From: Octopus vulgaris
Lineage: Eukaryota
Assembly (NCBI GenBank): GCA_951406725.2
Contig: OX597821.1
Location: 30,566,001 to 30,630,000, forward strand
DNA: 64,000 nucleotides
Direction: 5' to 3'
Position numbers and translations under genes: made by a program. Positions 46,632-47,733 of the stretch are shown here, piece after piece. The first letter of the stretch is position 1. Each line of letters starts with the position of its first letter. The notes under the pieces were generated by a model. The model was not told where the DNA came from. It saw nothing but the letters and a program-made list of their open reading frames with translations, and did no database searches.

Positions 46632-47733
46632 TTAGGGCTTAGTAAAATAAATTACTTTGCCACATACTGAACTTAGCAGAAATAGCAGCCCAAAAAAATT
46701 TTTTTAGCCATTTCTACTATTTAAAGAAAATTTCTCTCAGATAATGTTTACTCCAGACAGTTCACGAAGGTTTGGAGGTAAATACAGAAAAATATCACAA
46801 GTACATATGTCGTTTGAGTACGTCAACGTTTCAAGATTAGCCAAATAAAATCAGCATTTCTTTCGTCAGCTCAAAATTTCTTAATTTGGATTTGGAAACA
46901 CTAAAAAGAAGGAACTTTACCTATCGGCGAACTTGTCGCTTATAAATAAATTACTTTGCCACATTTCTGAGAGAAATTTTCTTTAAGTAGTAGAAATGGC
47001 TAAAAAAATTTTTTTTGGCTGCTATTTCTGCTAAGTTCAGTATGTGGCAAAGTAATTTATTTTACTAAGCCCTAATTATATAATGTAATATTTTGAATTC
47101 GCCTTAAATGGTCCTTTTACATACTGAACACTTGGTGAAATTGATTAATTAATTTTACCCTCAAATGTTGATATTTAATTCATTTCTCTCTGTCATACTG
47201 CCTCGGTTCTCGCGGTTAAAATATAATGTTTGCTAGATAGACCACGTGGGTGGAGAAGGAGTGCAGAAATTTACGCCTGCGCATTTTGAATTTGTTGGCA
47301 CTGGCAGTTGGAGCTGGTTCATCTGAAGCGACAAGTTCGCCGATAGGTAAAGTTCCTTCTTGTTAGTGTTTCCAAATCCAAATTAAGAAATTTTGAGCTG
47401 ACGAAAGAAATGCTGATTTTATTTGGCTAATCTTGAAACGTTGACGTACTCAAACGATCTATGTACTTGTGATATTTTTCTGTATTTACCTCCAAACCTT
47501 CGTGAACTGTCTGGAGTAAACATTATCTGAGAGAAATTTTCTTTAAGTAGTAGAAATGTCTAAAAAAATTTTTTTTGGCTGCTATTTCTGCTAAGTTCAG
47601 TATGTGGCAAAGTAATTTATTTTACTAAGCCCTAATTATATAATGTAATATTTTGAATTCGCCTTAAATGGTCCTTTTACATACTGAACACTTGGTGAAT
47701 TTGATTAATTAAGTTTACCCTCAATTGTTGATA
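46632..47733 (+). mobile_element. non-coding PLE-derived element with inverted and tandem terminal copies, between (TA)n runs
   Basis: 46632-46940 is inverted relative to 47330-47640; 46965-47173 is a direct copy of 47527-47733. Confidence 0.85.
47392..47454 (+). ncRNA. canonical type I hammerhead ribozyme (mirror copy at 46813-46875, minus)
   Basis: TTTGAG-CTGACGA-AAGA..TCTT-GAAA-CGTtgAC-GTA-CTCAAA: 6-bp stem I, closed stem II, stem III, GUA cleavage triplet. Confidence 0.88.

Follow-up and report, generated by a model that had tools for sequence, protein, structure and literature searches.

A single, slightly decayed animal non-LTR retrozyme, inserted at a (TA)n tract with the help of a reverse transcriptase/endonuclease borrowed from a Penelope-like element, is in our estimation (probability of about 0.8) what underlies the two hammerhead ribozyme motifs found on opposite strands of a short non-coding element in the window, a 64,000-nucleotide stretch of the Octopus vulgaris genome; the opposed orientation of the two hammerheads would then be a by-product. 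The locus itself, one among thousands of copies and likely inert, is of little weight. The family to which it belongs provides genomic support, by footprint and not by homology, for a hypothesis already in print, in which animal retrozymes owe their mobility to Penelope-like enzymes.

The element lies between two target tracts, a TA-rich microsatellite on the left (46417-46630) and a (TA)n microsatellite on the right (47731-47890). Its inverted arm (46620-46941, minus strand) covers unit positions 155 to about 473-480 and ends at a short, tail-less fixed end; it is followed by a junction filler (46942-46965, minus strand), within which 46944-46964 is a second occurrence of 46645-46665: a short stretch of the element in antisense, whose origin may have been template-switch-like. 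On the plus strand there follow a partial direct copy (46966-47171), which is the 3' end of a preceding unit, pseudo-LTR-like and devoid of a hammerhead, and a full 561-bp non-coding unit (47172-47733) that ends at the long fixed end, the tail of about 88 nt (47645-47733, plus strand) being the segment between the two fixed ends. By analogy with the start sites described in PMC11167929, as far as its available text goes, these two ends are the predicted points at which reverse transcription begins. Self-comparison confirmed the inverted arms with one hammerhead per strand, and the third, direct partial copy, that an earlier note made from the letters alone had described: the arms 46620-46941 and 47326-47647 are 98% alike over 322 nt, and the direct copy 46966-47177 is 98% alike over 212 nt to 47526-47737, lying 560 nt upstream of its twin. 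The locus accordingly holds 1.37 units on the plus strand and 0.58 on the minus strand, and no stop-to-stop frame of at least 50 amino acids occurs within 46632-47676, bearing out the same note's 'no ORF'. Two variants (unit positions 335 and 419) are common to both arms and missing in the other segments, of which there were 45 and 51, while the arms differ from each other at 7 positions, and from this combination it is likely that a single template was copied in one event and that decay set in thereafter.

The hammerhead of the plus copy (47392-47454) has the CUGANGA, GAAA and NUH elements and the helices I-III in the order of type I. Its stem I is formed by TTTGAG (47392-47397) and CTCAAA (47449-47454), i.e. 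UUUGAG/CUCAAA in RNA, with a distal helix at 47386-47388/47458-47460; CUGACGA begins at 47398 and is followed by GAAA, and stem II consists of AAGA/TCTT (UCUU in RNA), an AAU/UAA internal loop and an inner helix of 5 bp. Cleavage is predicted 3' of 47448, at the end of the GUA of 47446-47448. The minus copy (46813-46875) has its C3 at 46869 and a predicted cut between 46819 and 46818, and two private substitutions (about 46808-46809) break its distal stem I helix. A core pattern that had been shaped on the motif itself finds two sites in the window where 0.02 would be expected, a count of at least two being reached by 0 of 100 shuffles. Core, stem I, stem II and GUA site were all found as the note had described them, with the same predicted cut. 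A stem III is likewise present, formed in the monomer by three pairs (A-U, C-G and G-C) under a UUGA loop; the CGT/ACG register proposed for it would leave a loop of 2 nt and forms only in the dimer. Rfam yielded no hammerhead family among 10 matches to the element at E<=10 and none among 150 of the 195 matches listed for the whole window, for which the long helix II is the likely reason; the microRNA matches of that search were set aside as TA-repeat noise under their cut-offs. The AAU/UAA loop (47409-47411 and 47428-47430) is kept across four subfamilies while the helices on either side of it change, making it a candidate site for tertiary docking or protein binding; together with the internal loop within stem I, it is also a candidate, as judged from the sequence, for the loop 1/loop 2 tertiary contact.

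In the 2.8-Gb host genome the unit 47172-47733, used as a query, returned 1263 candidates, of which the best 40 were scored and proved 96-100% identical. Walks from diverged copies added another three subfamilies, whose units measure 545, 568 and 594 bp (1323, 3207 and 1127-1811 candidates, respectively, these being first-look figures and not copy numbers), so that the family comprises four subfamilies with units of 545-594 bp, more than 1,000 candidate places per query and tails of about 88-103 nt. The junction across which units follow one another head-to-tail is fixed in all four subfamilies, and the units of one array number at least 12. At the level of the family we are therefore dealing with what defines a retrozyme, namely short non-coding units arranged head-to-tail and each endowed with a type I hammerhead. 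In 150 loci, the ORF of a Penelope-like element (PLE) was never attached to a unit, tblastn matches being confined to the flanks, and the walks into the three further subfamilies gave only more non-coding units. The suggestion that an autonomous partner would emerge on extending genomic copies upstream of 47175 did not hold, as the extension reaches either another unit or a truncation, and no ORF. The family was not found in the octopus and cephalopod hammerhead, Penelope and retrozyme literature; supplements, Repbase and Dfam, which lay outside the scope of that search, may hold it. The window contains a further member, a plus-strand 3' tail at 1-110 whose insertion extends beyond the upstream edge of the window, where it has an inverted arm. 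It had been recognised as belonging to the family, and rightly so (82-86% alike to the element), but it comes from a separate, older insertion of subfamily 3, and the hammerhead upstream of it has a mutated core. Elsewhere, insertions of subfamilies 1 and 2 stand about 400 bp apart (L010, also L061) and relatives or PLE fragments stand side by side (L207, L182, L234), from which it follows that TA tracts are hit repeatedly; in another locus (L180:1300-1900) subfamily 4 is represented by three pieces of its 3' end in tandem, each with its own (TA)n, which likely reflect local duplication after insertion.

That the hammerhead is under selection is supported, at the level of sequence, by the conservation of its core and by compensatory changes in its helices. 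The core columns are kept in 50-52 of 52 distinct hammerhead sequences of subfamilies 1-3 (56 rows were found and 52 aligned, four with ragged starts being left out), a conservation that is partly built in because the copies were gathered by near-match patterns; the variable core positions are N7 (C in 44, A in 8) and H17 (U in 31, A in 21). In stem II and the inner helix, 36 cells are changed on both sides, against 15.4 after shuffling (0 of 500 shuffles) and 0-14 in slid controls, these cells counting sequences and not events, with few independent changes behind them. Subfamily 4 has CCCAUG/CAUGGG as its stem I instead of UUUGAG/CUCAAA, with all six pairs formed in 27 of 31 copies; its N7 is U and its core is intact in 24 of the 31. 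Compensatory change hence supports stem II, the inner helix and stem I, whereas stem III is conserved without covariation. When folded as a circle, the unit gave z-scores of -6.9 and -5.9 against 40 shuffles, a comparison in which no linear fold took part. These observations, together with the multi-copy units, bear out the idea of a conserved hammerhead carried by a mobile non-coding family.

Folding predictions suggest that the ribozyme likely works as a same-strand dimer, in agreement with the picture given of metazoan type I hammerheads in the available text of PMC4209133 and PMC7229834. In the predicted monomer fold, stem III has a probability of 0.07-0.12 only (0.07 for the construct 47380-47470), since a competing helix pairs the core, and the hammerhead fold lies just 0.3 kcal/mol above the minimum. 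By pair counts the competing helix does about as well as the hammerhead fold, three helices being common to both folds; considered as a conserved fold in its own right, it was rejected, as it fails in copies with N7=A. Stem III and its loop are fully self-complementary in 32 of the 52 sequences, with one central mismatch in 12 more, and in 27 of the 31 copies of subfamily 4, although a short loop III would be self-complementary by chance in 16-40% of cases. When two window copies were cofolded, the best fold was a double hammerhead (-34.2 against 2 x -11.6 kcal/mol), as was also the case for subfamilies 2 and 4, while two subfamily-3 examples dimerised through other pairings.

None of this would be of avail to the locus itself. 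With one hammerhead per strand there can be no release of a monomer, and the locus does not count as 'active' under the test of Li et al. (bioRxiv 10.64898/2026.07.22.740005), which calls for two consecutive same-strand units with complete hammerheads. Its read-through RNA is predicted to fold into a 322-bp hairpin, the antisense arm being transcribed first on each strand, and every hammerhead stem has a probability of 0.0 in that fold. On these models the locus is likely inert as a source, its single hammerhead per strand being masked by the hairpin upon read-through, and it is unlikely that the two opposite hammerheads work as a pair. Of the two products that had been foreseen for a transcript from either direction, the long hairpin is therefore to be expected and the self-cleaving RNA is not. 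Four runs that we guess to be RNA yielded contigs, incapable of revealing circles, ends or strand, that cover all 30 unit bins and cross the unit junction; they share a variant set, and all four differ from the locus at 47362 and 47506, hinting at expression from other copies.

How the family inserts can be read from its footprint. After de-duplication, 114 insertions were complete, and 69 of them show the inverted layout (another 19 loci, cut by their edges, fall outside the 114, and a few segmental duplicates may remain). The 69 comprise 59 with one long and one short end, 2 with two long ends, none with two short ends and 8 that could not be classified, i.e. long/short in 59 of the 61 classifiable insertions (p=1.6e-15 against 50:50), and the fixed ends adjoin (TA)n. 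Partial tandem, inverted truncated copy, one-end tail and (TA)n target together make up the layout described for PLEs in the available portion of PMC8557442, and the anole PLE protein is reported, in the accessible part of PMC11167929, to nick and extend both strands, starting at two sites that bound the tail. In the young subfamily 2, opposite arms differ by 0.22% and same-arm units by 0.19%, as against 2.3% between separate insertions, with some overlapping loci counted twice; gene conversion could instead account for the identity of the arms. Inner ends fall within 10 nt of the cut in 3 of 183 cases, where 6.7 were expected, in a sample biased against inner ends at that place, given that the loci are best matches to queries mostly spanning the cut site. 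As the inner ends are not piled up at the cut, the template likely reads through it, as would a circle or an uncleaved multimer; a linear cleaved monomer as template is not favoured on the same, biased, sample.

The following course of events would account for these features. Tandem arrays elsewhere in the genome, whose transcription is hinted at, are the likely source of RNA. In their transcripts, two same-strand hammerheads are predicted to form a double hammerhead and to cut out unit-length RNA, which a host ligase, to judge from other retrozymes, would close into a circle. The enzyme would then nick both strands of a (TA)n tract and start one cDNA per nick at one of two fixed sites; the two-end footprint, with sites about 88 nt apart, is observed, and its enzymology is our extrapolation. 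The two cDNAs would be copied from a single template, running on past the cut, and would end at variable points before being joined into inverted and partial-tandem arms, a scheme to which the shared variants and the read-through directly speak and in which a circular template is presumed. We further propose, tentatively and at less than even odds, that a dimeric enzyme of the Penelope type copies a single RNA circle from both (TA)n nicks, with one subunit per start site, and that a hammerhead active only as a dimer frees monomers from the array and spares the circle, the RNA being recognised by its structure without homology to the partner. If this were true, a 561-nt RNA would be a minimal substrate for how inverted insertions of PLEs form. 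In any event, the long-end/short-end rule and the variants shared by the arms make the origin of the PLE inverted copy testable with a short RNA.

As regards a provider of such an enzyme, a young Hydra-clade PLE occupies 42568-45542 of the window itself, where its ORF (43722-45014, minus strand) is truncated and is accompanied by an inverted arm and minimal hammerheads at 45404 (plus) and 42706 (minus); it has two long ends, unlike three other inverted copies of which both ends were seen. Its family comprises many near-identical intact ORFs of 727 amino acids (29,560 candidates) with the Hydra motifs RWK, DKT, CxCX5C, CxxC and CxH, on which the assignment to the Hydra clade rests, since Pfam gave no family for the Hydra-like ORF; members of the 727-aa family also target (TA)n, carry a minimal hammerhead and have two ends that lie about 67-70 nt from each other. 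Another young family of PLEs (L150, L155 and others) encodes an ORF of 781 amino acids with a C-terminal GIY-YIG domain and sits in (TA)n with a tail of about 34 nt, and the core pattern detected no hammerhead downstream of this ORF in nearly all its loci. The four PLE families examined (the 727-aa Hydra-like, the 781-aa and two older Hydra-like ones) share no significant DNA with the four units; a Hydra-type partner is our best guess, judging from target and tail length. Other repeats in the window include the 3' end of another TA-targeted element (22575-22760, minus strand) with a CUGACGA...GAAAC core at 22711, which recurs in the flanks of L019, L026, L125 and L262; a decayed Hydra-like endonuclease fragment (17676-17897, minus strand), 34% alike to the young family; and a 116-bp tandem repeat (35693-36297) of 5.2 copies at 98% identity. 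Between two TA tracts lies the broken 3' end of a LINE-like reverse transcriptase (45707-46331, plus strand), for which Pfam gave no match and which we take to be a LINE of CR1/L2 type.

Several observations weigh against the preferred reading. No autonomous element with homologous ends appeared among the four PLE families; the tail of about 88 nt exceeds the published 30-40 bp as well as the tails of the young autonomous families (about 67-70 and about 34 nt); Rfam did not match the hammerhead; and one of nine predicted retrozyme dimers was cleaved in vitro, according to the text available of bioRxiv 10.64898/2026.07.22.740005. Its closest competitor keeps both the family and the enzyme, and departs from it only in the processing of the RNA and in the copying step: the template would be a linear multimer, left uncleaved, that derives from a homogeneous master array, and the hammerhead would play no part in insertion. 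Such a template fits equally well with the near identity of units and with reading through the cut site, and the anole PLE is reported to use unprocessed RNA in vitro, its hammerhead mutants inserting normally (PMC11167929, in the part accessible); against it speak a hammerhead and a strongly self-paired unit fold that have been kept across four diverged subfamilies, as well as the circles demonstrated for retrozymes of coral, mussel and axolotl (PMC7229834, likewise in part). We regard it as a serious possibility, albeit one that falls short of an even chance. It is improbable, by comparison, that the copies stem from an autonomous Penelope-like element yet to be found, as its terminal repeats truncated at the 5' end, despite their sharing the PLE layout, despite the truncated PLEs with opposite-strand hammerheads 100-700 bp apart that the available text of PMC4209133 describes, and despite a scoring that covered the best 40 candidates per search: a fixed head-to-tail self-junction in all four subfamilies, arrays of at least 12 units and 150 loci devoid of an attached ORF all argue otherwise.

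The two remaining explanations concern the locus more than the family. Intact cores on both strands and a predicted 322-bp hairpin would suit a functional convergent pair, used by the host as a source of self-cleaving or long hairpin RNA; the same layout is nonetheless an insertion footprint in 69 of 114 insertions, private changes amount to about 1% of the locus, with two falling in the distal stem of the minus hammerhead, and the contigs of the guessed-RNA runs carry other variants, rendering such a use very improbable. That an assembly error produced the inverted and tandem layout, the outcome that the earlier note had named as fatal to its proposal, is scarcely credible. Palindromes beside (TA)n are admittedly hard to assemble, and the inversion junction (46946-46957) is without contig cover in four DNA runs, which proves nothing either way; the arms, however, differ at 7 positions, end at two different fixed sites and have filler between them, the layout recurs with locus-specific junctions, and the short end running into (TA)n is present in contigs of independent DNA runs. 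We accordingly take the layout as real, and hold to the single retrozyme insertion as the preferred reading.

Placed among known systems, the family resembles most closely the animal non-LTR retrozymes (PMC7229834; bioRxiv 10.64898/2026.07.22.740005; both for the text available), with which it shares a non-coding tandem unit, a type I hammerhead, low GC, a self-paired predicted circle, a short helix III suited to dimers and the co-existence of autonomous PLEs. It differs from them in having a helix II extended through the invariant AAU/UAA internal loop and in its unit size, 545-594 bp as against the typical 150-450, although the preprint reports 51-972. The text of PMC7229834 that was available mentions neither inverted arms nor (TA)n targeting, both of which are found here, and homology to PLE terminal repeats, present in 24 of 57 Xenopus families according to the accessible part of the preprint, was not found in the octopus units. 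The dimer-cleaving satellite hammerheads of newt and axolotl (PMC7229834, PMC4209133, in part) share with ours a weak helix III and a self-complementary loop, and a double hammerhead is predicted here; in contrast to them, the monomer fold has a competing helix that occupies the core, and a helix III of 3 bp with a UUGA loop may allow some activity as a monomer. With Hydra-clade PLEs (PMC8557442) and the anole Poseidon (PMC11167929), both again as far as their available text goes, the family has in common the partial tandem, the inverted truncated copy, the one-end tail and the (TA)n target, and its two fixed ends match the two reverse-transcription start sites of Poseidon; it departs from PLEs in lacking an ORF, in a tail of about 88-103 nt instead of 30-40, and in a full-size hammerhead where theirs is minimal. 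Hence the family inserts like a PLE without being an autonomous member of that group, as it has no ORF for a reverse transcriptase and GIY-YIG endonuclease, and by the sequence-level definition it is an animal non-LTR retrozyme.
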